A program made the translations under genes and the position numbers. The notes beneath the pieces are model-generated. The model was given only the letters and a program-made list of their open reading frames with translations. It made no database searches and was not told where the DNA came from. Source: a virus (taxonomy: Duplodnaviria > Heunggongvirae > Uroviricota > Caudoviricetes). Taken from it: a stretch of 50,264 nt of DNA. Within the stretch, counting starts at the first letter, position 1; each line of letters starts with the position of its first letter. The stretch is taken from the IMG/VR virus record IMGVR_UViG_2925891887_000005, one strand, 5' to 3'. Of the stretch, positions 1-15,248 are shown in pieces.

Positions 1-1749
1 ATGACAGTGGCAAATTATAATTCTCTTGTCCAGAAAACTTTCTGCGAAAATGCAATTCGTTCCGTTGTCATGATTGATGACGATTTTCTGACGTATTCTG
101 AATCAATCAGGGCGTTGAATAACGAAGTTGATTTAGACTACAACAAAATTGACTCATCTAAACGAGCCGCTACTCTTGAGAGCTTTTTTCAATCTAAAAA
201 TATGATTTGTGATGTTGACAATGGTTCTGTTAATTTCGATGTGGATCGGATTAGAAAATCAGATCTTATTATTGTAGATTATCATCTTGATAATAATGCA
301 CCTGATAAAACACTTAAACTATTACAAGATTTGAAAGACTCCGATCATTTAAATATGATTGTAATATATACTAGAGAGAATTTAGAAACGGTTTGGATGC
401 AGATATCATCGACTCTCAAAGGTGCTCTGGATATCAACAGCTTGATCATTGACTACGATAATGAAGATGTCCAAAGTTATTGGGAAGACGTTGTATTACC
501 GAACTTAAATGATAATGGTAATAAAGCTCTCACAAGAGATGAAACAATAGCCTATATTAAAGACAGTAAGCCTTGTAGAAGAATTAAAAGATTAATACAT
601 GATGATGCTGTGTTGGAGGATCAAAAGGATAAAAACTTCATTGCAAAAATGATTGCAGAATATGCTGTGTCTAGAAATGCAATTATTTCTAGCAACACAT
701 CTGGCAATGTCATTCGGGGTGATGAAAGCGGAGTAAAATGGATTCAATGTGGTAATATCTTTGTCTCCCTATTTCATAAGGTTCAAGATGATCATGAAAA
801 CGATGGAGATAGGATTTGGCAAACTCTCAATGATTCTCTCATTGAATGGAAACCATCTTATTATCAGTTAATAAAATCTGAAATTCAGAATGCAATCGAA
901 GCTGAGGCTTTATCTTTTGTAAATCATTTGGCTAACGATCATTACGGTCAAGCTGCGTGGTTAAATGAGATATTAAAATCAGACTCGCCAGATATTAGAT
1001 GTAGAAATATTGACTTTGTATTTGGTAATTTATCAGAAGAGCTTTATCAAAGACTTAAAAATAATAATACGCTGGATGAATTTATCAAAAGTGTTTTTGA
1101 TAGCTATTCAAATGAATACGCTAACAGCGGAGTTGCTGCATTGCTCCAATATTGCTCTTCAAAAATGGATCTGCCATCAAATAATGATACTTATCACGAA
1201 ATGTATCATGCTTTAAATATGAATTTGTCTTCAAAGAATTTTGAAGATGGTCATATTTCTACTGGCACTATTTTCTTTGATACAGAGTCGAACAAATGGT
1301 ATTTATGTGTATCTGCGGCATGTGATTTGGTTCCTACTCAGGGTAACGACCCTCACCATGTAAGATTAAGTCCGCACAGGCTCATTAAAGTTCTGGAGCT
1401 TTTTAACGCCAGTCAGAGTAAAGCATTGCCATTTGCTGAACATTCGAAATATATATATGTAATGCATAAAAATCAAAGAAAATATCTCTCTATTTTCGAA
1501 GGGGATAAAACGCTTCCTGTTGTTGATTATATGGTGGTGTTGAATCATGGAACAACAGTTGATGGCGAAGAAAAAAATATTATTTCTGCCGTGTTTTTAA
1601 GTAATATGGATGGCAACGTGCAAAATGTTCCTGTCCGACTCAAACTTAAATCTCAACTGAGAACTGGTTATGCAGAAAGATATCAGGCTATAGCGTCTCA
1701 GTATAGCTCAAGGATTGGTGTGGATTATGTATCAATGATGCTACCATAA
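1..1749 (+). CDS. Hypothetical 582-aa protein with a CheY-like receiver (REC)-like N-terminus and a large uncharacterised C-terminal region
   Basis: Long ORF starting with ATG exactly at window position 1, so upstream context is unseen. N-terminal pattern VVMIDDDF ... DLIIVDYHLDNN ... MIVIYTRE fits the beta1 acidic pair, beta3 Asp and beta4 Thr of receiver domains. Visibly AT-rich compared with the phage core. Confidence 0.6.
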   Translation: MTVANYNSLVQKTFCENAIRSVVMIDDDFLTYSESIRALNNEVDLDYNKIDSSKRAATLESFFQSKNMICDVDNGSVNFDVDRIRKSDLIIVDYHLDNNAPDKTLKLLQDLKDSDHLNMIVIYTRENLETVWMQISSTLKGALDINSLIIDYDNEDVQSYWEDVVLPNLNDNGNKALTRDETIAYIKDSKPCRRIKRLIHDDAVLEDQKDKNFIAKMIAEYAVSRNAIISSNTSGNVIRGDESGVKWIQCGNIFVSLFHKVQDDHENDGDRIWQTLNDSLIEWKPSYYQLIKSEIQNAIEAEALSFVNHLANDHYGQAAWLNEILKSDSPDIRCRNIDFVFGNLSEELYQRLKNNNTLDEFIKSVFDSYSNEYANSGVAALLQYCSSKMDLPSNNDTYHEMYHALNMNLSSKNFEDGHISTGTIFFDTESNKWYLCVSAACDLVPTQGNDPHHVRLSPHRLIKVLELFNASQSKALPFAEHSKYIYVMHKNQRKYLSIFEGDKTLPVVDYMVVLNHGTTVDGEEKNIISAVFLSNMDGNVQNVPVRLKLKSQLRTGYAERYQAIASQYSSRIGVDYVSMMLP

Positions 1750-1820
1750 TTATTATATTTTAGGCGTGGTGATTTTTTTTCGCCATGCCTATTTTATATT
1801 TATCATCACAATGATGTTGT

Positions 1821-2237
1821 TTATTTTTGTTTAAGTCTTCTAAGCTTCATGCATTCTAATGAGAATAATAATAGAGTTGTGCTGTATATAAAGCCAGAGT
1901 TAGTTAATAACTTTAAATTTAATGCTTCAGGATTTTCACTGAGAAAGTGAAAGGCATAAACTAAGTATACAGCTAAAGTAGCCGTTCCAATTGTTGGTCC
2001 AATATCGCCTTGATCATGAGGTTCAAGGTTTACATTGAACTTGAAGATTAGCCATTCAAATCCCCAAGTAAAAAAAACAACTAATATCATGGCTGCGAAT
2101 AATTTCGCGATGTTATCTGCTGATGGATTCATCAGAACAGATTGTTTCTGAAAAAATTCACAAAGTGAGAGTCCGAAAAAAATAAAAAAAAGTGGTCTGG
2201 AACTAAATTTTTCAAAAACTTTGAATAGGGTTTCCAT
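1821..2237 (-). CDS. Small integral membrane protein (about 4 predicted TM helices), function unknown
   Basis: 138-aa ORF with four hydrophobic stretches (LFFIFFGLSL, AAMILVVFFTWGFEWLIF, TIGTATLAVYLVYAFHFL, GFIYSTTLLLFSL). AT-rich. Convergent with the 1-1749 ORF and directly downstream of the P4-like integrase. Confidence 0.5.
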   Translation of the reverse strand: METLFKVFEKFSSRPLFFIFFGLSLCEFFQKQSVLMNPSADNIAKLFAAMILVVFFTWGFEWLIFKFNVNLEPHDQGDIGPTIGTATLAVYLVYAFHFLSENPEALNLKLLTNSGFIYSTTLLLFSLECMKLRRLKQK

Positions 2238-2275
2238 TTTCTTTACCTTCAGGATTATATTAGCTATTCTGATAC

Positions 2276-3505
2276 TTAGGCTACCAGAGCATTTGATCTT
2301 TGAGCTTGAACGTAATCACTCCACCATTGCATCAAACTCTGTCGCTCTATCAGATATTCTGCACGATTGTATGCTGCGATAATTTCATCTTTTTTCGAGT
2401 GGGCAAGCGCTGCCTCAAGAACTTCAGCTCTGAATTTACCAGACTCCTCTGCCGCTGTTCGTGCAATAGAACGCATACCGTGAGCTACAAGCTCGCCTCC
2501 GAACCCCATTCGGATGATAGCTGCGTTGGCTGTTTGTTCATGCATATGATTAAGAGGCGCTTTTATGCTGGGGAAAACCCATTCTCTATGCCCACTTATT
2601 GATTTCATTAATTCAAGGATGCGCAAAGCTTCTTTACTCAAAGGAACTTTGTGAAGCTTTTTCATTTTCATGAAATCAGCAGGAATGTTCCAAATGCTGT
2701 TGGTTGTATCAATATCAGACCACCTTGCGCGAACGGCTTCACCCGGACGAACCCATGTCAACAATTGCCATTCAATTAGCATACGTGTTTCCAACCGGAT
2801 TGACGCATTCGTCAAAGATTCCATAAACCTTGGCAATTCGCTTGGGGGAAGGGCAGGCATATTTTGCTTTTTTGGTTTACTGAATCTTTGACCAAGGTTG
2901 TCAGCCGGGTTGAACTCAATAAGTTCTTCAGTAGCTGCCCACCGGAAGATTTCATTCAGACGTGAAATGATACGGCGTAGAGTTTCCAATACGCCTCGTT
3001 GCTCAATAGGATCAAGGTGTTGTTTTAAGAGCTTAGGTCGGATCTCATTGATAGGGACATTACCCAGACCGGGAAAGACATTTCTCTCTAAGCTGCGCCA
3101 GATGTCTGCTGCATGGTCTTGTGAGATACCTGATGTCTTTACCTTCTCATCTAACCATTTCCGCGCTACGGCTTGGAGAGTGTGCTCAGTAGCACTCTTT
3201 AATGCCTTCGCCTTATCGTTGTTATGGATTTGGGGATCAACACCATTTGCCAGAAAGGAGAGATATTCATCACGTAAGGCTCTGGCTCTTGCAAGGGTAA
3301 GGTGAGGATATGTCCCAAGGCTCATTTTGGTTCTTTTCTTGCTCACTGGTACTGCATACCTGAAATACCAATTTTTCTTGCCTCCTTTCGCCAAAGGAGC
3401 GATTCGTAGAATCAGACCATCACCGTCAAACAAGTTGATTTCTTTATCGGCTGGCTTGGTACTTTTGATTTCAGTGTCAGTGAGCTTCTTAGCGATTTTT
3501 GCCAT
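2276..3505 (-). CDS. int: P4-family tyrosine integrase (N-terminal DUF4102-type arm domain)
   Basis: N-terminus KKLTDTEIKSTKPADKEINLFDGDGLILRIAP...WYFRY is the signature of CP4-57/P4-type integrases; C-terminal catalytic region present. Start chosen at internal MAKIAKK (the track ORF extends to 3547). Lies beside the ssrA 3'-end remnant. Confidence 0.85.
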   Translation of the reverse strand: MAKIAKKLTDTEIKSTKPADKEINLFDGDGLILRIAPLAKGGKKNWYFRYAVPVSKKRTKMSLGTYPHLTLARARALRDEYLSFLANGVDPQIHNNDKAKALKSATEHTLQAVARKWLDEKVKTSGISQDHAADIWRSLERNVFPGLGNVPINEIRPKLLKQHLDPIEQRGVLETLRRIISRLNEIFRWAATEELIEFNPADNLGQRFSKPKKQNMPALPPSELPRFMESLTNASIRLETRMLIEWQLLTWVRPGEAVRARWSDIDTTNSIWNIPADFMKMKKLHKVPLSKEALRILELMKSISGHREWVFPSIKAPLNHMHEQTANAAIIRMGFGGELVAHGMRSIARTAAEESGKFRAEVLEAALAHSKKDEIIAAYNRAEYLIERQSLMQWWSDYVQAQRSNALVA

Positions 3506-3670
3506 TTTGGGACCCTCGGTTTTTGGACCCTTCTTAGTGGGTCCCATTCAGGGTGCCATAACTCGTAGTTCTCAGCAATTCTCACTGGACGACAATAGAC
3601 GTAAAAAAGCCCGCAGAGCTTGTGCTGTGTGGGCTTAGTAGACTTCATTGAACTTCAAACAACTAAAAAG

Positions 3671-3700
3671 TGGTGGAGCTGGCGGGAGTTGAACCCGCGT
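3671..3700. repeat. 30-bp direct repeat of the ssrA 3' end (attachment-site core; left prophage boundary)
   Basis: tggtggagctggcgggagttgaacccgcgt at 3671-3700 is identical to 49863-49892, the 3' terminus of intact ssrA; flanking sequence diverges on both sides. Confidence 0.85.
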
Positions 3701-3841
3701 ATGATTGAATTTATGTGTATGAAAAATAAAGTTTAATTTCTTCCTGCAATCTTTGCGTATCAAAAACGTGCACTTCGTCATTATTTTATAGTAATTTATT
3801 TTGCTCATTTTTGACTAGACAGATTTGGCTGAGGTGTCGCC

Positions 3842-4765
3842 ATGGAACTGTTGATTTCCCCAAAAAGATTGTGCCTTTATAATGATTCTGATCGCCGTGT
3901 TACAGCTAAGTTTTTGAACTCAGTTGATAACACCCTTGCGAGAGCATCTGGACAAGTGGTTATAGACTTTTCGACAGTAGAATATGCAGGTGCTGCAGCT
4001 AGCGTAAGGTTGTTTGCTATCATCAGTAGGGCTTATTTTATGGCATTCGGCACAAGTAGTCTTCGATTTATTTGGCCGAAAAAAGAAAATAATCCGTATG
4101 GGCATCGATATATTGTTGGGACGGGGTTATCGATTGCTCTAATGGCAAATACAGTTGATAAATTAGATGTTCTTACTAAGGAACGCAGGTACTTTCAGTC
4201 TGCTGTGGAACCGTATGAACATTGGGCTAAAACGATGGAATTTATTGATTCAAAAGCAATTCTCACATTTGAGCAATATCTTTTGGTCTCCTCAGCCCTT
4301 AGTGAGGCAATGCTGAATGTTTCATATCATGCATATGAACATCCAGACTTTGCTGGTGCTACAGAGCATATGCAAGGGAAACGATGGTGGCAGAGTTGTT
4401 GGTACAACCCTGACACAGACAAGGTTGTCTTTATTATTTATGATCTTGGGCTTGGCATACATAAATCATTTACTTCAGCCTCTCCGTTGTTTACTGGGTA
4501 TGACGACGTGACATCTGTGTCAACAGCCCTGACAGGAGGACAGTCCAGATATGTTAACGCTGGACGTGGTAATGGTTCTGAGGATATAAAGAGACCTATA
4601 GGGTCTGGCTGTGCGAATTCAGAATCACTTTTGGTGTTCACAGGGAATGTTAAGTACAGCTATAATTCAAGAAATGAGGTTCCCAAATGCGAGTGGATAC
4701 CTGAGTACATGCCGGGAACATTGATTGAATGGTCATTAGTTCCGAGGAGAGGAGAAGATGGTTAA
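3842..4765 (+). CDS. GHKL-type (histidine-kinase-like) ATPase-domain protein, possibly with an N-terminal STAS-like segment
   Basis: N-box-like SEAMLNVSYHAYEH, G1-like IIYDLGLGI and G2-like GRGNGS...IGSG motifs in the C-terminal half. N-terminal VVIDFSTVEYAGAAASVRLF resembles STAS-like folds. GAGG ribosome-binding site 8 nt upstream of the ATG. Confidence 0.6.
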   Translation: MELLISPKRLCLYNDSDRRVTAKFLNSVDNTLARASGQVVIDFSTVEYAGAAASVRLFAIISRAYFMAFGTSSLRFIWPKKENNPYGHRYIVGTGLSIALMANTVDKLDVLTKERRYFQSAVEPYEHWAKTMEFIDSKAILTFEQYLLVSSALSEAMLNVSYHAYEHPDFAGATEHMQGKRWWQSCWYNPDTDKVVFIIYDLGLGIHKSFTSASPLFTGYDDVTSVSTALTGGQSRYVNAGRGNGSEDIKRPIGSGCANSESLLVFTGNVKYSYNSRNEVPKCEWIPEYMPGTLIEWSLVPRRGEDG

Positions 4766-5099
4766 CATCGTCATAGCAAGGGATTTCTCAAAGATGCCAT
4801 TTGGAAGGTTCAAGTCTGACAGCCCGAACAGTGCTGAGCGTTTTCGTAAGGACTTTCTGGTTCCTGCATTAAAATCTGGTGAGCGTGAGGTTGTCGTAGA
4901 TTTTACGGGTATAAATCATGGGATTGGTTCTTCGTTTCTAGAGGAGGCCTTTGGAGGGCTTGTTAGGAAGGAAGGTGTACCTAAGGCTGACATTAAGGCA
5001 AAACTAATTATAAAAAGTGATTTGCCGTTCTATAAAGATCAAATTTTTAGATATATTGAAATGGCTAATCCAGAAAGGAAGCCTTTCCAAAGGAGTTGA
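4758..5099 (+). CDS. STAS-like (DUF4325-like) small protein, putative partner of the upstream GHKL ATPase
   Basis: 113 aa. Motif VVVDFTGINHGIGSSFLEEAFGGL matches the conserved core I recall for STAS-like/DUF4325 domains. ATG overlaps the upstream stop (translational coupling) and follows a GAGGAGAGGAG ribosome-binding site. Confidence 0.55.
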   Translation: MVNIVIARDFSKMPFGRFKSDSPNSAERFRKDFLVPALKSGEREVVVDFTGINHGIGSSFLEEAFGGLVRKEGVPKADIKAKLIIKSDLPFYKDQIFRYIEMANPERKPFQRS

Positions 5100-5100
5100 T

Positions 5101-5730
5101 TTGAACACCGTTGATATTAAGGACACCCTTGCAGGGGTGTCCACTTACGCATGGATGTTTAGTGTTGTGAGTATTATCTTAGTGTTTATTGGATGGTTTG
5201 TTACTTACAATAATTCACTGAAGATTGCTACTCGCTCTGAATCTAAATCGATTATAGATGCGATTGCTAAAATTTTAAACGAAATATCGGATTTGTCTCT
5301 GGATTACTGGGTTAATAAGTCAACACCACCAGATTCTAATCCATTTAAGAAAAAAAGTTTTAAGAACTCTAATGGATTGCATACTCAGTCGGCGAAAATA
5401 TATTTAACGGCAATTCATGGAAAAGCCATACAAATAAATAAATACATTAATCTTCTCGATGAGAGGGGGATAAAAATAACAATTTCGTATTTTTCTAATA
5501 TTATAGATGAAGCTACTATGGAATGTGAGAAATCATATTGTTTTAATAAGTCATATAGGGTTTTTCGCGCTCAGAATGTATCTAGTGCTTGTATCGATTT
5601 CATAATGCATTTATATGATTCTTTTCAAAAAAATCATCCTCCACGTAAGCCTGTATATGTATTGAAAACATTAAAACAATTGGATTGTTACTTGGATAAA
5701 TGGCATAATGAATTATGTGGGCGGCAATAA
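5101..5730 (+). CDS. Membrane-anchored protein (single N-terminal TM helix plus about 170-aa soluble domain), function unknown
   Basis: Track ORF is 5017-5730. AAGGAG sits 5 nt before an in-frame TTG at 5101, immediately after the upstream stop; alternative starts are ATG 5017 or ATG 5155. TM segment YAWMFSVVSIILVFIGWFVTY. Very AT-rich. Confidence 0.5.
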   Translation: MNTVDIKDTLAGVSTYAWMFSVVSIILVFIGWFVTYNNSLKIATRSESKSIIDAIAKILNEISDLSLDYWVNKSTPPDSNPFKKKSFKNSNGLHTQSAKIYLTAIHGKAIQINKYINLLDERGIKITISYFSNIIDEATMECEKSYCFNKSYRVFRAQNVSSACIDFIMHLYDSFQKNHPPRKPVYVLKTLKQLDCYLDKWHNELCGRQ

Positions 5731-5742
5731 ATGCCGCCATAA

Positions 5743-6909
5743 TCATTGTATAATGTATTTGATGGAGCTTTTTCCGTCGTATTCTTTGAGATATCGACCA
5801 TAGTGCCTGAAAAGCATCTCCGGCCCTTTATGCCCCATTTGAGCTGCAAGCCAAAACAGGTTTGCTCCTCGGCTGATATGGCTGGTGGCGAATGTATGCC
5901 TGGTTTGATATGGGTTTCTGTAACGAATACCTGCTTTTCGCAATGTTGGCACCCATGCTTTTTTCCTAATTGCATCAGCACTTGCCCAAGGCTTATTGGT
6001 CTTTGGATCTTCAAAGACAGTAGTATCCTTCATGAATGTAAATGGCTTCTGATTTATCAGCGCCAACATTGCCTCTTCTGTCAGTTCAACTTTCCGAGTA
6101 CCTGCTTTTGTCTTTGTCCCTTTGATAACACCGACAACACTTGCGCTCTGGACATAGGCAGTTTTTCCAACAAAGTCGATATCACGCCATCGAAGGGCAC
6201 ATAATTCAGAACTACGCAGGCCTGTATGTATAGCGAACCGGAACAGATTTTCCCATTGTTTGTTTCCGGCTGCTGCTAGTAATGCATCAACTTCTGCTGG
6301 TGATAGCGGATCAACTACGTAGCTGCTTTCTGCTTCTGACTTATCACTTTGGTAGCGCGAAGCTGTTACTAACGATACGGGGTTAATTTGAAGTACCCCA
6401 TCGGTCACGGCTTCATCAAGTGCTGACCGCAGGAAAGATAACTGGTTGCGAATTGTTTTTAAGGTCGTTTTCTGATTTTGAATCCACGCTTTCAGGGTTG
6501 CTGGTGTTAATTCACTTGCAGGGCAAATGTGAAGTGAGGCTAACGCACTACGGCATTTTTTATAGCCACCAATCGTAGAGGGTGAAAGTTTTCTTGTTTC
6601 GCAGATTTCAAGATATTCGTCCAGGTACATCTTTACCGTTTTGCCTGCAGCAGCATTACCAAAAATTTTCAAACGAGCAGAACGGGGAAAATATTCTGCA
6701 TAAATGAATGTTCCCCTTTCGATCTTATTATGGATTTCGCCGAGTGTACGCTCGGCGTATTTAATGTTCTTTGGTGTTACTTCCAGATTGGAAAGCGGCT
6801 CACGACATCTAACTCCTTTGTAGGTGAAAGTTATATTGATCGTTTCTCCCTGGCGGTGTTTCCTGATTGTTACGCCGCGCGGTAGTTTGAGCAGTTTTGT
6901 CTGGCCCAT
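5743..6909 (-). CDS. int: Prophage tyrosine integrase (lambda-type, arm-binding N-terminus)
   Basis: 388 aa with a catalytic C-terminus (R...HxxR...Y pattern: RHTFATS, LFRHYGRY) and an N-terminal arm-type domain. Immediately downstream of xis in the leftward operon. Confidence 0.9.
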   Translation of the reverse strand: MGQTKLLKLPRGVTIRKHRQGETINITFTYKGVRCREPLSNLEVTPKNIKYAERTLGEIHNKIERGTFIYAEYFPRSARLKIFGNAAAGKTVKMYLDEYLEICETRKLSPSTIGGYKKCRSALASLHICPASELTPATLKAWIQNQKTTLKTIRNQLSFLRSALDEAVTDGVLQINPVSLVTASRYQSDKSEAESSYVVDPLSPAEVDALLAAAGNKQWENLFRFAIHTGLRSSELCALRWRDIDFVGKTAYVQSASVVGVIKGTKTKAGTRKVELTEEAMLALINQKPFTFMKDTTVFEDPKTNKPWASADAIRKKAWVPTLRKAGIRYRNPYQTRHTFATSHISRGANLFWLAAQMGHKGPEMLFRHYGRYLKEYDGKSSIKYIIQ

Positions 6910-7076
6910 TTTGCAACCTCACTAAGATCAATCCACCTCTCCTTAACGCCTTCAACCTTTAAAACCTGAACACCTTCACGCCAAACACCGCGCTGTACAC
7001 GTTTGTTTATTGCTTCAGGAGTTTCGCCAGTTTCTTTGCAATAAGTTGAGATAGGAACACAATCGAGGTTCAGCAT
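6870..7076 (-). CDS. xis: Excisionase (Xis-like DNA-binding protein)
   Basis: Small basic ORF overlapping the int start; winged-helix-like TGETPEAINKRVQRGVWREG. Start placed at MLNLDC, which has GGAG 8 nt upstream; the track ORF extends to 7115. Confidence 0.65.
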   Translation of the reverse strand: MLNLDCVPISTYCKETGETPEAINKRVQRGVWREGVQVLKVEGVKERWIDLSEVAKWARQNCSNYRAA

Positions 7077-7117
7077 ACGTTTCTCCATTATCCCGTCTGC
7101 ACACGGGAGCAACATTA

Positions 7118-8008
7118 TTAACGAATAGTGTCGTTACTTTGAAGTACAGCAAATGCCATTAATACTTCTAAAGTATATCTTCTATAAAATTTAACAAAAC
7201 CAACATAGAAAACATAGACGAAGAAAAAGCTAAGCATTATTGAAAGTAAACTATAAAGATAATCACTATGAGTACATAATCGATAAATAAAGGTTGGAAC
7301 TGATACCCAAAATGAAATTATAAAGATTAAACATATGTTTCTGCAAAAACCATATAATGCAACATAGTTTTGAATTTTTGTTTGATGTTGTTTTGAAAAC
7401 TCATAAACATAATGATATGCCAATCTGAAGAGATCATCATCAAGTCCGTTTTTATCTTGTAATAATTGGCGATTTGTTATGAACTTTTTCTCATAACCTT
7501 CTTTGATCATTAACCATGTTGTATTAGCTAAATGAAATGGTAGAGATTGAGAATAACATAGTTTTTGTGTTATAAAATCCCATAGTATTATTGGGCATAA
7601 TACGCATTTGATTATGCGATTCTTTATTTTTGTTTTTTTATCAGCGCTTCTCTCATCGCATGATGGGCTACAAATGCTTTCTGAGGTATCTATCAATTTT
7701 TTAAATAGATATTTGGAAGGATATCCTAATTCTTTATTCATGTGTTTTTCGATAAAAAATGCTGACGTGATAGAAATAAAATGTCCAGCTATATAAGATA
7801 TAATAACTATTGAAGCGTAGTTCAAAATGCCAAAGATTTGACTTTGACCTCTGAGCAATTCACTTAAGTCAATAACAATATCTAGATCGAATGTCAAACC
7901 ACAGAAATACATTAATAGGATAAAAAAACCACCTGGTATTAAATATCCAAGAAAGTCATAGAATGAGAATGGATTTTGATTCATTGTTGCTCTCCAATAA
8001 TTGTTCAA
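7118..8008 (-). CDS. Polytopic membrane protein, unknown function (moron in the early-left operon)
   Basis: 296 aa with at least four hydrophobic helices at the N- and C-termini; extremely AT-rich, contrasting with flanking phage genes. Confidence 0.5.
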   Translation of the reverse strand: MNNYWRATMNQNPFSFYDFLGYLIPGGFFILLMYFCGLTFDLDIVIDLSELLRGQSQIFGILNYASIVIISYIAGHFISITSAFFIEKHMNKELGYPSKYLFKKLIDTSESICSPSCDERSADKKTKIKNRIIKCVLCPIILWDFITQKLCYSQSLPFHLANTTWLMIKEGYEKKFITNRQLLQDKNGLDDDLFRLAYHYVYEFSKQHQTKIQNYVALYGFCRNICLIFIISFWVSVPTFIYRLCTHSDYLYSLLSIMLSFFFVYVFYVGFVKFYRRYTLEVLMAFAVLQSNDTIR

Positions 8009-8092
8009 TTTGTAATATAACCTATATCTATATGTTAATAAATTACTTATATGTTCTTTTATGGCAGAGTTTGAATTCGTACGTGCTGATTT

Positions 8093-8617
8093 TTACGACT
8101 CAGTTAACTCTTTAAAGCGTTCCATAAACATCCCATAGGTATGGCCTGGCGACAGTGGAATAACTTTGAACATCTCTGTTGCCGGGATACCTTCCAGTAC
8201 GGGCCAGAAAGAGCCATCATCAAGCCCGAGATCGCGGCGTTCGGTTGCCAGCATGATGAGATCGGCATATTTCACGGGCGTACTCATAACCGGGGGTAAC
8301 CCGTATTTCTCACGGATTACGGCGTCTATTTTTTCTTCCATCCGTTTATAGTCAGGAAGAAGGCGTTTCAGTGGAGCCGGGATGTCCTGGCAATACGCTT
8401 CTGTTGCATCATGCATTAACGCTTCAAAAGCAAATTCCTGCGGTACCAGCTGGCTGCAAAGCACCGCATGTTGGGCGACGCTGTAGAAGTGTGAAAGATG
8501 GCCGGCAAAGCGACAGATATTTGAAAGGGAAACCGCGATATCGTTAATATCGATGTTGTCTTTATTTATCCTGTCATAATAAAAATGTTTCCCGGAAAAA
8601 GTTTTAATAAATGACAT
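8093..8617 (-). CDS. yfdR: HD-domain phosphohydrolase (YfdR-like)
   Basis: H...H (HLSHFYSVAQHAV) and HD (ALMHDATEAY) metal-binding motifs. ATG at 8617 is preceded by GGAG; the track ORF begins at GTG 8629. Confidence 0.75.
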   Translation of the reverse strand: MSFIKTFSGKHFYYDRINKDNIDINDIAVSLSNICRFAGHLSHFYSVAQHAVLCSQLVPQEFAFEALMHDATEAYCQDIPAPLKRLLPDYKRMEEKIDAVIREKYGLPPVMSTPVKYADLIMLATERRDLGLDDGSFWPVLEGIPATEMFKVIPLSPGHTYGMFMERFKELTES

Positions 8618-8745
8618 TTTATTCTCCACGTTATATGCGCTGCATCGCGCTGAATTTTGGTTAAAGAAAACCCTCGCCTTCAGGCGATTATTGAGTCAAT
8701 TACGTTTCCATAAATGCCCCCGCAGGGGCATTTGCAGTAATGAAA

Positions 8746-9570
8746 TCAGGCGGTGAAAGTCCCAATAAAGGTTTCTACTTTGCTGTCCTTGAATTTCTCA
8801 ACAAGCAGATCACGAAATTCGTTAGCCATTTCTTCCTGCACCGCCTCCAGCTGAATAATGCGCAGAACCAGTACAGGACGATCGCCAGTGATAATACTGA
8901 GGCGTAATTTAAACGGACGTTCTTTCAGACCTTCAAACGGAACGCATTTAAATTCAAATGCCACTGGCATAATGTCTTTGGTCTTCGCTTCGACAGACTC
9001 CATCAGGGAGCGTTTGCCGCTGAAGTCATTATCTTCAAAATCAGCGGTCTGGTTTGCTTCAATCGTGATTTTACGGACAGCCGCAGCCGCTTTTGTTGCC
9101 TGAATAGCGTCACCATTAGCATCAAAGCCCACAAGATAGTCGGCCCAGTCTTCAATCCATTCTGCTAGTGACTTCTGGGAGTTACGCTCGCCGTTAACAG
9201 ACAACAGAGCAGAGAACGGTGCTGTCTTTTTCAGTTTGAGTGTGGCGGTGTTATCTGCGTGACCTGGTTCATCAATAGTACCCAGGTTAAGCACACTGAC
9301 GGCACGCATATTATCAGCATCGATAAAGCAGCGGGTGCCTTCATCTGCAAGATCTTTAGAATAACGGGTAAAGTCATCGATGCTGGCAGTGGAAAGCGCA
9401 CCACGGAAACGGAAGCGATTTAAATTAAATTTTTCCAGATCATGAATGCGGAAATTCTCAGGCAATGCCACAGCATCGGCACCAATCTTACTGATAATTT
9501 CATTAACACCCTGAGCAGAAATAAGGGCATGGATTTGATTAATTGCGGTTGCGTCTAAGTTCTGAGACAT
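8746..9570 (-). CDS. yfdQ: YfdQ-family (DUF2303) prophage protein
   Basis: 274-aa ORF; length and sequence recalled as matching the CPS-53 YfdQ family. GAGGA ribosome-binding site upstream. Confidence 0.75.
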
Positions 9571-10666: not shown

Positions 10667-11341
10667 TTAGGCCTTTATTGTGTATCTTCTTGGTTTTCCC
10701 GAGAAAATCACTGTACCAATTATAGAGCAATTACCGTTAATCTTAATGTAAGGCTCAGGCCAGTTTGGGTTTAATGCTTTGAGATAACGCTGTGTTCCAT
10801 CTTCTATCAATCGCTTGAAGGTGGTTTCGCCTGTATCGTGCATCAATGCAATAACGTCGTCACCGTGGCAGGCAGGGACTTCGGGATCAACAAAAATCAT
10901 GTCTCCAGGGCGGTACTCATCAATCATTGAATCACCAATCACCCGCAAGATATAAGTCATTTCGCCACAGGGTACAGGGCAGGGATACGTTTCTGCTGTG
11001 CTCAAATCAACCTCAGAATAGCCAACTTCTTTCCATGCTCCGGCCTGTACCCATGATATGACAGGGACTAACGTTATTTGTTTGTTAGTGATTGAAACAT
11101 CAGGTTTTTTTGTGATGTTCGTTGTCTGGTGTTCTTGATCAAGCCATCCGACAGGCAGGTCGAAACATTTTTCGATGTGCCGTGCCATGCTGTCACCGAT
11201 ATTTTTAGTAGCGCCATCCCCCATAAACCTGCTGGTTTGGGTTGGCTCGCGATCAATCATGGTGGCAAAAGATGAATTTCCGCCAACACCATCTCTCAGT
11301 TTTCTGGCGTTAGACCGCCGGATGTCATGGATTGTTTTCAT
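10667..11341 (-). CDS. cI: CI-like prophage repressor (HTH plus S24 LexA-like peptidase domain)
   Basis: 224 aa; C-terminal S24 autopeptidase region (GDSMIDEYRPGDMIFVDP... with downstream Lys); divergent from a cro-like gene. Confidence 0.85.
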   Translation of the reverse strand: MKTIHDIRRSNARKLRDGVGGNSSFATMIDREPTQTSRFMGDGATKNIGDSMARHIEKCFDLPVGWLDQEHQTTNITKKPDVSITNKQITLVPVISWVQAGAWKEVGYSEVDLSTAETYPCPVPCGEMTYILRVIGDSMIDEYRPGDMIFVDPEVPACHGDDVIALMHDTGETTFKRLIEDGTQRYLKALNPNWPEPYIKINGNCSIIGTVIFSGKPRRYTIKA

Positions 11342-11663: not shown

Positions 11664-12227
11664 ATGAGGCTAACCGTGGGTAAGTATCACTGGAAAGTAG
11701 AAAAACAGCCTGAGTGGTACGTGAAAGCTGTCAGAAAAACTATCGCAGCGTTGCCGGGTGGTTACGCTGAAGCAGCTGACTGGCTGGATGTAACAGAGAA
11801 CGCATTATTTAACCGCCTTCGTGCCGATGGCGATCAGATTTTCCCGCTGGGATGGGCAATGGTTTTACAGCGCGCGGCTGGCACTCACTACATTGCGGAT
11901 GCTGTCGCACAGTCTGCTGGTGGGGTGTTCGTATCGCTTCCTGAAATTGAGGAAGTAGAGAACGCCGATATAAACCAGCGCCTGCTGGAAGTCATCGAAC
12001 AGATCGGGAATTACTCAAAGCAGATTCGTTCGGCAATCGAAGATGGGGTCGTGGAGCCACACGAGCAGACAGCAATTAATGATGAGTTGTATCTGTCAAT
12101 TTCGAAGCTCCAAGAGCATGCAGCACTGGTCTACAAAATCTTTTGCGCTCCAGAAAAGAGTGACGCCCGCGAGTGTGCAGCTCCGGGCGTCGTGGCGTTT
12201 TGTGTCTGTGGAGAAACTAACGCATGA
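11664..12227 (+). CDS. CII-like / YdaT-like early regulator
   Basis: 187-aa ORF immediately downstream of cro in the rightward early operon; family assignment is from position and general resemblance only. Confidence 0.45.
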   Translation: MRLTVGKYHWKVEKQPEWYVKAVRKTIAALPGGYAEAADWLDVTENALFNRLRADGDQIFPLGWAMVLQRAAGTHYIADAVAQSAGGVFVSLPEIEEVENADINQRLLEVIEQIGNYSKQIRSAIEDGVVEPHEQTAINDELYLSISKLQEHAALVYKIFCAPEKSDARECAAPGVVAFCVCGETNA

Positions 12228-13060
12228 ACAGTTTAACGGCAAATAACCGTTTGTCGCAACAGCTGGTGGTCAGCGTCGCTGAACACCTGTTGTTACGGCA
12301 TGAATGCAGATTACCAAATCACCTGGCTGTAAGTAACCACAGAGAACTTTACCTGACTGTGGGGGGCGAGTTGTGCAGGAACTTAACCGCTGGTTTCGTG
12401 ACGGAAGAGGACTTTATGTTCATGTTATTCGTTGGGAGCCAGAAACACAGCGCGTTATCTATCTTCGCAAAGACTACCCGCATGAGTGCTTTAGTCCTTT
12501 GTGGAAATTCAGGCGTGATTTTATTGAGTGTGAAGGACCACCAGCACATTGATTCTGCCATTCCGGGACGTTACACTGTTCAGGCACCTTATAAAGCGGG
12601 TGCCGGGATTGGCGTCCTGGAATTGATCAAGGCGATATATGACGCGCCAGCGTCTTTTTTATCGTCCGCATTTGCTCACATCAAAGTTATGGTGGGCTGG
12701 GCGGGGGCATCGAAAGATGCGCCGGTTTCCTTGATCACCGGTTACGCCAACCCCGTTCAGTTCACCACCAGCGAAATTGGCGTTTCCGGTGGTGGAAGTA
12801 TTTCACCGATCAAGGAGGCTGCCATCATGGCTACTGTCCCAGCCCTCACTCGTCTGAATGATGAAGACTTACATAAACTCAGTTATGTAACAACAGCACT
12901 ACGTGCTCTGCGCAAGGTAACTCTTTCAGATCCGCAGGCGCATCAACTTCTGGTAGAAACCCTTCTTAACTTGCAGGCTGAACGTATTCGTTTGGCGGAT
13001 AAGGCTAATCTTCATATTCACCGTCTCCTGAATATCAGCGGAGGGCATCGTCATGCTTAA
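12224..13060 (+). CDS. Hypothetical early protein(s); coding frame ambiguous
   Basis: ATG overlaps the upstream stop (ATGA). There is an internal AAGGAGG plus ATG at 12827, and an alternative-frame GTG ORF at 12373-12552; it may be one gene or several small ones. Confidence 0.35.
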   Translation: MNSLTANNRLSQQLVVSVAEHLLLRHECRLPNHLAVSNHRELYLTVGGELCRNLTAGFVTEEDFMFMLFVGSQKHSALSIFAKTTRMSALVLCGNSGVILLSVKDHQHIDSAIPGRYTVQAPYKAGAGIGVLELIKAIYDAPASFLSSAFAHIKVMVGWAGASKDAPVSLITGYANPVQFTTSEIGVSGGGSISPIKEAAIMATVPALTRLNDEDLHKLSYVTTALRALRKVTLSDPQAHQLLVETLLNLQAERIRLADKANLHIHRLLNISGGHRHA

Positions 13061-13289
13061 TCCGTTGATCCTCAATATTCACCGTTTACTTCAGCGTAAA
13101 AAAATATCAATTCCTACAGTTGGGCAGTGGTACACCACACCTGCAGGGCATGTTCTACGTGTTAGCCTGGTTGACCGTGAATGCCAGAAGGTGATTTGTG
13201 AACCGCTTGGCCGTAATTACCGCGTCAGTATGCCGCTTATAGCCTTTCGCTCCGGAAAAAACATGAAGCATCTCGGAGGTGCAGCATGA
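13053..13289 (+). CDS. Hypothetical small early protein
   Basis: 78 aa; start overlaps the upstream stop and the stop overlaps the O-like start (ATGA), indicating translational coupling. Confidence 0.45.
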   Translation: MLNPLILNIHRLLQRKKISIPTVGQWYTTPAGHVLRVSLVDRECQKVICEPLGRNYRVSMPLIAFRSGKNMKHLGGAA

Positions 13290-14104
13290 GTATGGAGCTG
13301 ATGGTTAAAGCGATGAAAATTCGAGTGGGTAATCCATTGCGAAAACTGGTTCTGATCAAGCTGGCTGATAATGCCAGCGATCAGGGTGAGTGTTGGCCCA
13401 GCTACCAGCATATTGCTGACCAGTGCGAGATTAGCAAACGTTCTGTGATGAATCATATTGCGGCCCTTTGTGAGTCCGGGCTGGTAAAAAAAGTCACCCG
13501 GAAAGGTGAAAAAGGTAACTCAAGTAATATCTATCTCCTTCATCTTGATGGTGCAGGAGATTCACTAGGGGGTAGTGCAAATAATTCACTATCTGGTGCA
13601 GCAAATTCACCAGGTAGTGCAGGAGTTGCACCAGGGGGTAGTGCAGGAGATTCACCCAGAACCAGTCACTCTTTTGAACCAGTCAAAGAACCAGTCAATG
13701 AACCAATAGCTGTTGGTGCATCAGTTGATGAGTCCGTGCGAGTTCGTTCAAACCGACCGGAATACTCTCCGGAGTTTGAGCAGGCATGGCTGGTATATCC
13801 CAAACGTGCTGGTGGCAATTCAAAATCTGCAGCCTTCAAAGCCTGGAAAGCCCGTTTGAATGAGGGGGTAAACCCCGAAACCATGCTGGAAGGTGTGAAA
13901 CGCTACGCGGGCTGGGTATCTGCGATGGGTAACAGCGGCACACAATTTGTGAAACAGGCTGTCACGTTCTTTGGTCCGGATCGTCATTTCGAAGAATCCT
14001 GGGAAGTTCCTGCGGTATCTGCAGCCAGACGCGAGGACCCGTACTTCAAAGCCAGTTACGACAACGTGGACTACAGCCAGATCCCGGCAGGATTCAGGGG
14101 GTGA
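13286..14104 (+). CDS. Replication initiator (O-like, N-terminal HTH) with internal iterons
   Basis: N-terminal HTH replisome-organiser-like region; a Gly/Ser/Ala-rich linker is encoded by DNA direct repeats; position matches lambda O. Confidence 0.65.
   Translation: MSMELMVKAMKIRVGNPLRKLVLIKLADNASDQGECWPSYQHIADQCEISKRSVMNHIAALCESGLVKKVTRKGEKGNSSNIYLLHLDGAGDSLGGSANNSLSGAANSPGSAGVAPGGSAGDSPRTSHSFEPVKEPVNEPIAVGASVDESVRVRSNRPEYSPEFEQAWLVYPKRAGGNSKSAAFKAWKARLNEGVNPETMLEGVKRYAGWVSAMGNSGTQFVKQAVTFFGPDRHFEESWEVPAVSAARREDPYFKASYDNVDYSQIPAGFRG
13549..13705. repeat. Iteron-like direct repeats (candidate ori) inside the O-like gene
   Basis: GTGCAGGAGATTCAC occurs twice, with related GGTAGTGCA/GGTGCAGCA units between, then GAACCAGTCA repeated three times. 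Confidence 0.5.
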
Positions 14105-14595
14105 TCATGAGTCTTTTGAATGAAGTTCAGAAATACATTGAAGCCCATCCGGGGTGTACTTCCGGAGACATTGCGGATGCTTTTGCAGGTTACTCACGGC
14201 AGCGCGTTCTGCAGTCAGCAAGCAAGTTACGTCAGAGTGGTCGTGTGGCTCACCGTTGTGAAGGGGATACACGCAGACATTTCCCGCGCCTGACTGAGAG
14301 AGCGCAGGAGGCGGAACCGCAACCAGTTCGTGAAACCAGACCTGTGCGCAATTTCTATGTCGGCACTAACGATCCCCGGGTGATTTTGTGCCTGACCCGC
14401 CAGGCGGAAGAACTGGAGTCGAGGGGCTTATACCGTCGTGCTGCAACGGTGTGGATGGCGGCATTCCGTGAAAGCCACTCCCAGCCAGAGCGAAACAATT
14501 TTCTTGCGCGTCGTGAGCGGTGTTTACGGAAAAGCAGCAAGCGCGCTGCATCGGGTGAAGAGTGGTATCTGTCAGGGAATTACGTGGGGGCTTAA
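14101..14595 (+). CDS. Hypothetical early protein (winged-helix-like N-terminus)
   Basis: 164 aa, translationally coupled to flanking genes; function not assignable from sequence. Confidence 0.45.
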   Translation: MIMSLLNEVQKYIEAHPGCTSGDIADAFAGYSRQRVLQSASKLRQSGRVAHRCEGDTRRHFPRLTERAQEAEPQPVRETRPVRNFYVGTNDPRVILCLTRQAEELESRGLYRRAATVWMAAFRESHSQPERNNFLARRERCLRKSSKRAASGEEWYLSGNYVGA

Positions 14596-15248
14596 TGAGT
14601 AATAAATATTGCCAGGCGCTGGTGGAGCTGCGGAACAAACCAGCCCATGAACTGAAGGAAGTGGGCGATCAGTGGCGCACGCCGGATAACATTTTCTGGG
14701 GAATTAACACCCTGTTTGGCCCGTTTGTTCTGGATCTGTTCACTGATGGTGATAACGCCAAATGTGCCGCTTATTACACTGCGGAAGACAACGCGCTGGC
14801 GCATGACTGGTCTGAACGTCTTGCGGAGCTTAAAGGTGCTGCCTTTGGTAATCCCCCGTACAGCCGCGCCAGTCAGCATGAAGGGCAATACATCACCGGC
14901 ATGCGTTACATCATGAAGCATGCCAGTGCCATGCGTGATAAGGGCGGACGCTATGTTTTCCTGATCAAAGCTGCCACCAGCGAAGTGTGGTGGCCGGAAG
15001 ATGCAGATCATATTGCTTTTATTCGCGGGCGTATTGGTTTTGAACTGCCTGCCTGGTTTATCCCGAAGGACGAGAAGCAGGTGCCGACAGGCGCTTTCTT
15101 CGCTGGTGCTATTGCTGTTTTCGACAAGACCTGGAAGGGACCGGCAATCAGCTACATCGGGCGCGATGAACTTGAGGCATGTGGTGAGGCGTTTCTGGCG
15201 CAGGTTCGCCAGCAGGCAGAAAAACTGGTCAGGGAGATGGCGGCATGA
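14595..15248 (+). CDS. Phage Dam-like DNA N6-adenine methyltransferase
   Basis: Contains the NPPY catalytic motif (FGNPPYS); start overlaps the upstream stop (TAATG). Confidence 0.75.
   Translation: MSNKYCQALVELRNKPAHELKEVGDQWRTPDNIFWGINTLFGPFVLDLFTDGDNAKCAAYYTAEDNALAHDWSERLAELKGAAFGNPPYSRASQHEGQYITGMRYIMKHASAMRDKGGRYVFLIKAATSEVWWPEDADHIAFIRGRIGFELPAWFIPKDEKQVPTGAFFAGAIAVFDKTWKGPAISYIGRDELEACGEAFLAQVRQQAEKLVREMAA

Follow-up and report, generated by a model that had tools for sequence, protein, structure and literature searches.

A probable replication origin inside the winged-helix initiator gene of a lambdoid Stx2c phage

Where does a lambdoid phage start its replication when its initiator gene is not a homolog of lambda gene O? 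In lambda the origin consists of iterons that lie inside gene O and are bound by the O protein, and an origin inside the initiator gene is a textbook principle. We take up the question for the IMG/VR virus record IMGVR_UViG_2925891887_000005, a stretch of DNA of 50,264 nucleotides that is called the window here, as a whole. Judged by its sequence, the window is a lambdoid Stx2c-converting phage. Its replication initiator gene (13286..14104, plus strand; 272 amino acids in the open reading frame (ORF) call) carries short direct repeats in mid-gene, which an earlier account made from the letters alone, the sequence-only reading, had put forward as a candidate replication origin. We suggest that the segment 13551-13709 is quite probably the core of the phage replication origin, lying within the very gene that encodes its initiator, and comparison supports that candidacy through a conserved dyad array, covariation of the array with the predicted recognition helix, constraint at the DNA level and the position of the gene. 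The arrangement appears to be the one already known from lambda ori, set in an initiator family that is different and widespread.

Dyad arrays in the initiator gene and its relatives

The first of two repeat families consists of five 15-base-pair (bp) units, GTGCA-N5-T(T/G)CAC, which span 13551-13655 in the same orientation with start-to-start distances of 24, 21, 21 and 24 bp. Exact copies of GTGCA-N5-TTCAC start at 13551, 13575, 13596 and 13641; on the plus strand these are iteron 1 (13551..13565, GTGCAGGAGATTCAC), iteron 2 (13575..13589, GTGCAAATAATTCAC), iteron 3 (13596..13610, GTGCAGCAAATTCAC) and iteron 5 (13641..13655, GTGCAGGAGATTCAC again), the last of which lies 2 bp upstream of a conserved element, as in nearly all relatives. 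The remaining unit, iteron 4 (13617..13631, plus strand, GTGCAGGAGTTGCAC), has one mismatch to the others, is a perfect 5-N5-5 palindrome and matches the pattern on both strands. Every 15-mer is itself a dyad of GTGCA and T(T/G)CAC, with four or five of the five pairs complementary, a feature absent from the sequence-only reading. At one mismatch or fewer the pattern has 15 matches in the window, against 4.4 +/- 2.0 in shuffled sequence, where no shuffle reached 15, and six of the 15 fall within the 105-bp stretch (five units, one of them counted on both strands). By a Poisson estimate the P of five units in 105 bp is about 5e-13, with the pattern defined post hoc, after the data had been seen; the window holds no second cluster of the motif.

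The second family, GAACCAGTCA, has exact copies at 13659, 13676 and 13688 (span 13659-13697), the only exact ones in the window, and a degenerate fourth copy, GAACCAATAG, at 13700, so that the repeat search places these direct repeats at 13659..13709 on the plus strand. At one mismatch or fewer there are eight matches in the window, against 2.7 +/- 1.7 in shuffles. Both families thus lie inside the ORF 13286-14104 (plus strand), where the sequence-only reading had placed them; the repeat-finder analysis that it had called for returned periods of 21, 24 and 12 (Tandem Repeats Finder), and the Gly/Ser/Ala-rich linker that it had read from them is there as well, as residues 89-142 (GAGDSLGGSANNSLSGAANSPGSAGVAPGGSAGDSPRTSHSFEPVKEPVNEP). 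By sequence comparison, the two families differ in behavior: the 15-mers are phage-specific, and the GAACCAGTCA repeats stand within an almost family-invariant stretch.

The repeats sit in the segment that codes for the linker between a DNA-binding N-terminal domain and a C-terminal domain. The former is a predicted winged-helix domain (Pfam, AlphaFold and Foldseek; residues 1-86, 13286..13543, plus strand) that matches Pfam HTH_36 (PF13730) over residues 17-67 with 44.1 bits against a cut-off of 25 (E 1.8e-11), and PF13730 is found in all 120 of 120 homologues among the matches listed, out of roughly 5,400 homologues found in all. DnaD_N scores 24.3 bits, under its cut-off of 27; a Pfam-A hmmscan at E <= 0.01 returned HTH_36, DnaD_N, B-block_TFIIIC and HTH_20 only, with neither Phage_rep_O nor RepA_N (PF06970). 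The label 'O-like' that the sequence-only reading gave to the protein therefore holds for its role and layout and fails for its family. In the AlphaFold model, residues 1-90 have a predicted local distance difference test (pLDDT) score of 67-91, with helices at 3-11, 17-28, 40-47 and 51-64 and a beta-hairpin wing at 67-73/79-85; residues 91-156 fall below 50 and helices resume at 162, which suggests that the repeats encode a disordered linker. Foldseek returned winged-helix DNA binders only, with weak E-values (0.02-0.04) and many different winged helices scoring alike, among them DnaD-N 2v79 (E 0.025), 4pql and 5kbj ('Structure of Rep-DNA complex'), and a sequence search against solved structures gave nothing meaningful. 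The C-terminal domain (residues about 157-272, 13754..14101, plus strand) is delimited by PHROG, AlphaFold and domain swapping: its helices, 162-236, are modeled with moderate confidence, its PHROG matches over residues 145-249 are 'DnaD-like helicase loader' and 'primosomal protein', and among relatives it is swapped jointly with the downstream partner gene. We propose that it is a module recruiting the helicase or its loader. The two halves of the protein match different PHROG families and the initiator is therefore modular; as a whole it matches phrog_270, 'replication initiation protein' (E 7e-88).

Relatives were chosen by protein. A tblastn search of phage records found 302, many of which share the N-half only or the C-half only, and twelve annotated phages with N-domains 55-88% identical were compared. 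After the N-domain these twelve have a repetitive linker of unrelated peptides (GMPADST, STPPVPPE, PPSDRMSP, GGAGAA), followed by the peptide PRTSHSFEPVKEP and then by differing C-domains, and in all of them the linker DNA consists of 15-bp dyads set in an array, with GTGAC-N5-GTCAC in Vibrio phage D67 and mEp044, GGGCA-N5-TGCCC in Stx2a_F403 and GCACA-N5-TGTGC in S107. An earlier IMG/VR scan with a single N-domain had given identical N-domains only and was replaced by a scan of species-representative genomes, one per bacterial species, with an N-domain alignment as query and no selection on DNA. It gave 80 loci, in Enterobacter, Proteus, Xenorhabdus, Erwinia, Pseudomonas, Marinomonas, Shewanella, Aeromonas, Aliivibrio, Vibrio, Haemophilus, Avibacterium and other hosts. 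Nearly all of them, from the Enterobacterales to Pseudomonas, Shewanella, Vibrio and the Pasteurellaceae, hold three to seven 5-N5-5 dyads in the same place, and AGAACCAGTCAC is present at two mismatches or fewer in 77 of the 80. The sequence-only reading had offered non-conservation of the repeats in homologous initiator genes as grounds for giving up the origin, and conservation is what the comparison found. Perfect 5-N5-5 dyads occur at 1.95 per 100 positions in the 125 bp upstream of AGAACCAGTCAC, against 0.25 in N-domain coding sequence, 0.14 in C-domain coding sequence and a random expectation of 0.10, a family-wide enrichment of about 8-14x over flanking coding DNA. The usual plan is three to seven units of (C/G)(C/T)(A/G)GTGnn-N5-nnCAC(C/T), then CC, then AGAAYCAGTCAC TCTTYT GAAYCAGTCAW. 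As an observation in its own right, two initiator ORFs, in Pseudomonas bharatica (L218) and Erwinia tracheiphila (L247), are cut to 133 and 118 amino acids by frameshifts within the iteron array, a place where decaying prophages seem especially liable to inactivating slippage.

Between phages, the left and right half-sites vary jointly and the dyad is kept (GTGAC/GTCAC, GGGCA/TGCCC, GTGTA/TACAC, TGCCA/TGGCA). Moreover, the half-site type tracks residues 51-56 of the predicted recognition helix (an AlphaFold helix, residues 51-64, KRSVMNHIAALCES, 13436..13477, plus strand), of which there are 50 distinct variants. Helices of the types S[KR]RSV[MI]x and RSAx go with GTGCA/GTGAA; SKRSVMR, DKRTAMR, DRRTAMR and SKRTAMR (mEp044) with GTGAC; S[RK][KT]TAI with GTGTA; [SG]RSTVK with GGGCA; DRSTVR with TGTAGGC; and S[KR][ST]AVR and SHSSVR with TGCCA. 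A single helix residue separates the window, where SKRSVMNHI (Asn56) goes with GTGCA, from Erwinia and Izhakiella prophages, where SKRSVMRHI (Arg56) goes with GTGAC. Such covariation would follow from recognition of the repeats by the N-domain, and a dyad sequence that varies in step with the recognition helix is what would be expected of iterons bound by their own initiator.

The constraint on the repeats, as far as sequences can tell, is on the DNA and not on the peptide, because a single unit is read in two frames within one protein where unit spacing is not a multiple of three (GSDTESP and GVVTQSH in mEp044; PSESPAL and LVNLLH in the Shewanella locus L266), and because the units vary less than the spacers do. 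In a set of 67 distinct alleles of the window gene, 5/75 unit positions are polymorphic against 8/30 spacer positions (Fisher P = 0.009), and about 24% of N-domain third codon positions are polymorphic in the same alleles. Unit number is 1, 2, 5, 8 or 9 in otherwise near-identical proteins (alleles P0042, P0028, P0003, P0001, P0024 and P0018), as would be expected of a tandem binding-site array in a dispensable linker; the one- and two-unit alleles may mark replication-defective prophages.

The conserved element beside the dyads

Immediately to the right of the dyads lies an element that is near-invariant across the family, AGAACCAGTCACTCTTTTGAACCAGTCAA (13658..13686, plus strand), recognized by its conservation in loci chosen by protein only, where per-position conservation is 61-100%. 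At identical residues, codon identity reaches 96% over the nine codons that run from AGA to GTC, compared with 42% for the N-domain, and the major-allele frequency at third positions is 0.96 in the element against 0.58 in the N-domain; these conservation figures carry some ascertainment, the element being located by fuzzy match. In nearly all of the 80 loci and the 12 phages the dyad array is followed by the element AACCAGTCA, which is kept when other reading frames pass through it (RTSHRTSQLEPVK in Aliivibrio, RTSHSINQSIN in Avibacterium, PEPVTLEPVNES in Shewanella and PNQSYITSKEN in mEp044). The element contains an internal repeat, GAACCAGTCAA, present in two to four copies among alleles (P0024, EPVNEP; P0018, EPVKEPVKEPVNEP), and in a few loci the two copies are altered alike, both reading GAATCTATCA in L257, CTATCA in L279 and L289, and CCAATCA in L288.

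We propose that AGAACCAGTCACTCTTTTGAACCAGTCAA is a second component of the origin. In its wider form the proposal is that the 29-bp stretch AGAACCAGTCAC-TCTTTT-GAACCAGTCAA is the second universal working part of this Gammaproteobacteria origin class and that the helix/half-site series is a specificity code for a winged-helix initiator, giving a two-part origin with a variable address and a constant engine; we hold this tentatively, with slightly more doubt than conviction. The 29-bp stretch could be the site that is melted or the site at which the helicase is loaded. Some plasmid Rep proteins and DnaA read the repeats of unwinding elements as single-stranded DNA, and by analogy a conserved surface of the initiator could recognize the stretch, perhaps in single-stranded form.

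The element might instead have been conserved as a homology junction at which N-domain/iteron modules and C-domain modules are shuffled, with no part in initiation. Its position is exactly where the conserved N-module gives way to the swappable C-modules, and short conserved boundary sequences are established in mosaic lambdoid phages. Set against this, initiators with the same C-domain and another N-domain (those of an Stx2d phage and of phage Evi) are without the element and have repeats of their own, so the element moves together with the N-domain and iteron module and is not a mere junction to the C-domain. A junction would also sit poorly with an element that is an internal direct repeat of variable copy number and spacing, that bears identical substitutions in both copies at L257, L279/L289 and L288, and that holds across hosts of very different base composition. 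We regard the junction as unlikely; it concerns the element only and is compatible with an origin at the dyads.

The Stx2d phage just mentioned, Stx2_112808, deserves a remark of its own. Its initiator (997-1905 of locus L294), with an unrelated N-domain and the same C-domain, has mid-gene repeats of a different kind, GGGAAAACC-type units followed by ACAGAGAATAC-type A-rich repeats, and its sequence suggests that the plan of an origin in the linker recurs there with a different address.

The case for an origin and its competitors

Several points weigh against an origin at 13551-13709. We found no experimental report of binding or of origin activity for the phage or its close relatives. Unlike lambda, the window lacks a strongly AT-rich tract on the right-hand side of its iterons; the conserved element has a guanine-plus-cytosine (GC) content of 0.44, and its instability ranks at the 20th percentile within the window. 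The GC skew shows no sign of an origin, its cumulative curve following gene orientation, and four of the five units are imperfect dyads, with TTCAC and not TGCAC. The helix/half-site covariation is descriptive, is uncorrected for phylogeny and rests on counts that include overlapping sub-windows, and the AlphaFold model, built from 22 sequences, has a mean pLDDT of 59 and is confident for the N-domain only.

To the left of the iterons the duplex is less stable. The segment 13500..13550, which directly adjoins them and to which no strand is assigned, is the least stable duplex of the interval 12.8-14.7 kilobases (kb), at -1.20 kcal/mol per step in nearest-neighbour terms against a mean of -1.42 (sd 0.08), and is a possible unwinding region. 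A terminator-like hairpin with a T-run lies just left of the iterons at 13494-13509 (minus strand); it is probably a chance occurrence, because such sites are as numerous in shuffles as in this region. A promoter inside the origin was looked for by analogy with transcriptional activation, and no sigma-70-like site was found in 12900-14700.

It is conceivable that the dyads are indeed initiator sites, serving for autoregulation or as a transcription roadblock, and that replication starts elsewhere in the genome. Plasmid iterons are established as having control functions as well, and a clear AT-rich unwinding element beside the array is not seen. However, the 50-kb window is without another cluster of the motif, and the array and the invariant element move as a block with the N-domain across hosts, C-domains and partners, which is how a cognate initiator-origin pair behaves. 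Furthermore, the known precedents of this layout are origins (PMC8022706, PMC5703833). We therefore consider a purely regulatory role for the dyads improbable.

Still less can be said for the view that the repeats are a by-product of a low-complexity flexible linker, in which slippage or unequal recombination of a Gly/Ser/Ala unit multiplied DNA that has no function. The encoded segment is predicted to be disordered, the peptide is rich in Gly, Ser and Ala, and unit number ranges from 1 to 9 among alleles, all of which such a view would accommodate. Yet the linker peptides of relatives are unrelated and all come from 5-N5-5 dyads about 21-24 bp apart, one unit can be read in two frames in a single protein, the half-sites vary jointly and follow the recognition helix, and the units are less polymorphic than spacers or synonymous sites. 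A functionless linker repeat is thus very unlikely. A role of the dyads as hairpin or cruciform structures, formed in single-stranded DNA or mRNA, is hardly credible and was rejected, for although each unit is a 5-base inverted repeat around a 5-base center, a five-pair stem with a five-base loop is weak, the single strand of 13540-13715 folds no better than shuffles (-20.6 kcal/mol against -19.8 +/- 2.8, z = -0.27) and no Rfam family reaches threshold here, so that with no folding signal the dyads look like duplex binding sites. A known RNA family over the repeats was likewise discarded, the only Rfam match there being a sub-threshold miRNA.

Partner genes, setting and known systems

How the proposed origin might engage the replication machinery is suggested by the genes that follow the initiator in different phages. 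Among relatives that share the N-domain and the origin plan, the initiator is followed by a DnaC-like loader and DnaB in AsXd-1, by DnaB in phiV039C, by a Toprim-AAA primase-helicase in S107 and Stx2a_F403, and by a lambda-P homologue in S1249; among the genome-sample initiators of at least 200 amino acids, 57 of 76 have a DnaC-like or lambda-P-like gene directly downstream. C-terminal tails sort by partner type, with ..DPLI, ..W.DF[IL] and ..NF/NW accompanying lambda-P-like or DnaC-like neighbours. By analogy, the layout would follow the two-domain logic of lambda O, whose N-half recognizes the origin and whose C-half recruits the helicase machinery. Separately, the Toprim/AAA primase-helicase of Stx2a_F403 (L004 3388-5538) contains Hint and LAGLIDADG domains, that is, an intein.

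In the window no helicase or helicase-loader gene adjoins the initiator, and the protein ends in the peptide SQIPAGFRG (14075..14101, plus strand), which BLASTP against MG1655 dnaT aligns with the C-terminus of DnaT (SQIPPGFRG; 8/9 identical); BLASTP found no other sequence similarity between the initiator and DnaT. The initiator of phage Evi, with a different N-domain and the same C-domain, ends in SEPDTEIPPGFRG, to be compared with SEPDSQIPPGFRG in DnaT. In two Enterobacteriaceae/Enterobacter prophages (L215, L216) an initiator with a PxGFRG tail has a DnaC-like gene directly after it, in the same order as dnaT and dnaC of the host. We infer that the SQIPAGFRG tail contacts the DnaC-DnaB loading system, and the shared tail may be a docking peptide for the helicase-loading system of the host; the literature searched states no role for the C-terminal peptide of DnaT. 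A rule by which a DnaT-like tail means that the phage has no loader was considered and is contradicted by the same two prophages, which have both the tail and a DnaC-like gene. Besides the window, the observation on the shared tail covers L213 (4979-5518, minus strand) and L295 (769-1839).

We envisage the following course, in which binding, unwinding, helicase recruitment and origin firing are all inferred. Upon loss of the cI-type repressor, the early rightward transcript would express the 272-residue initiator, and dimers of its N-terminal winged helix would bind the five GTGCA-N5-TKCAC dyads. As half-sites are 10 bp apart center to center and units about two helical turns apart, the dimers, once bound, would be expected on roughly the same side of the double helix. 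The nucleoprotein complex would then destabilize one flank or both flanks, the right one being the AGAACCAGTCAC...GAACCAGTCAA element and the left one 13500-13550, and the C-terminal domain, tethered through the disordered linker that the origin itself encodes, would bring the replicative helicase. Given that no loader or helicase gene lies beside the initiator, host DnaB-DnaC would be used, and the DnaT-like C-terminal peptide may make the contact with it.

The genetic setting is that of a lambdoid early region. A cI-type repressor (10667-11341, minus strand) is followed by a cro-like gene, which lies between it and the initiator, and by a CII/CP76-type gene (11664-12227), also upstream of the initiator; an Ash-domain ORF and a small ORF come next, and the initiator, downstream of cI, cro and cII, occupies the position of lambda gene O. 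The gene after it is a PerC-family regulator (14101-14595), beyond which lie a Dam methylase, a LexA-like protein and RusA. Two Rfam families score above their gathering scores on the plus strand of the window in the interval from cII to the initiator, isrK (RF01394, 12584-12660, 64.2 bits) and C4 antisense RNA (RF01695, 12685-12772, 82.3 bits). Both matches fall within the mechanically called ORF 12224-13060, whose C-terminal half is the Phage_ASH domain; this 278-amino-acid ORF is probably over-called at its 5' end, and by its sequence the region looks like an RNA-controlled antirepressor unit of the P1/P7 c4 type or the Gifsy isrK type. Elsewhere, positions 1-9000 of the window have a GC content of 0.34-0.43 against 0.45-0.61 in the remainder, which suggests that the left 9 kb is a mosaic or recently acquired left-arm segment.

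The initiator gene is not peculiar to the window. Its DNA is 99.3% identical to that of twelve records of Stx2c phages, and identity with the 'replication protein' genes of mEp460, cdtI, SfV and others is 98.5-99.1%; SfV orf39, the mEp460 'replication protein' and ST64B sb42 are the same gene. At least 80% of it is found in 896 of 5426 complete E. coli genomes, about one in six.

Lambda, P22 (gene 18) and phage L (gene 18) show that lambdoid initiator genes can hold their own phage-specific iterons (PMC8022706). The window gene resembles these in standing in the early right operon after cI, cro and cII, in carrying its candidate origin in mid-gene, where it codes for the linker between an origin-binding N-domain and a partner-binding C-domain, and in having direct repeats about 20 bp apart with internal dyads that are phage-specific and matched to the N-domain (PMC8022706). 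It differs in that its protein is of the HTH_36 family, is without a Phage_rep_O match and is not a lambda O homologue; in that its units are 15 bp (5-N5-5), whereas those of lambda are 19 bp; in that a conserved GAACCAGTCA repeat element stands on the right, where lambda has a 40-bp AT-rich tract; and in that the window has no P gene, its initiator ending in a DnaT-like peptide, identical in eight positions to the last nine residues of E. coli DnaT.

A second precedent is the Rep protein of pSK41, for which the same layout has been shown experimentally and the ori-encoded linker found to be dispensable; a chimeric pPR9 initiator with a pfam13730 (HTH_36) N-terminal domain supports autonomous replication (PMC5703833). 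In initiators of the RepA_N family the N-domain resembles DnaD and the C-terminal domain contacts host replication proteins (PMC5703833). The window protein is like pSK41 Rep and RepA_N in having a winged-helix N-domain with boxes placed centrally in its own gene, binding being known there and predicted here (PMC5703833). Unlike the window, the RepA_N systems are Gram-positive theta plasmids under antisense RNA control, and the window protein lacks a Pfam RepA_N match and has weak fold matches (E 0.02-0.04). The C-terminal domain of pSK41 Rep binds the DnaG primase, a link that we do not claim for the window protein.

Replication modules of Stx phages other than that of lambda have been catalogued as Eru types (Llarena et al., 2021; Fagerlund et al., 2022), with HTH_36 proteins in Eru5, 6, 8, 11 and 13 and, in some types, Ash-domain proteins just after cI (PMC8044961, PMC8951638). 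The window, an Stx2c phage with a module of HTH_36 and Ash-domain proteins, is of this kind. Eru2, the type tied to Stx2c in those surveys, has a DnaB-type helicase gene after its initiator; that gene is missing here, and an assignment of the window module to Eru2 is unsupported. Neither survey mentions iterons or an origin, the word 'iteron' occurring 0 times in them (PMC8044961, PMC8951638). The literature searched yielded no published account of either this origin or the invariant element, although an earlier mention in the SfV genome paper is possible, and full-text search for the repeat strings returned unrelated primers only.

Stx2c and related Stx phages must replicate to amplify their toxin genes after induction, and the proposal places an origin for a module that is also carried by the SfV, ST64B, mEp460 and cdtI phages and for which published surveys gave proteins and no origins. 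It offers three concrete targets for experiments and for studies of incompatibility and interference, namely five dyads, one invariant element and a DnaT-like tail. The family comparison is, in addition, a natural data set in which recognition-helix residues are paired with DNA half-sites and, if the reading given here is true, it would amount to a ready-made specificity code for a winged-helix initiator.

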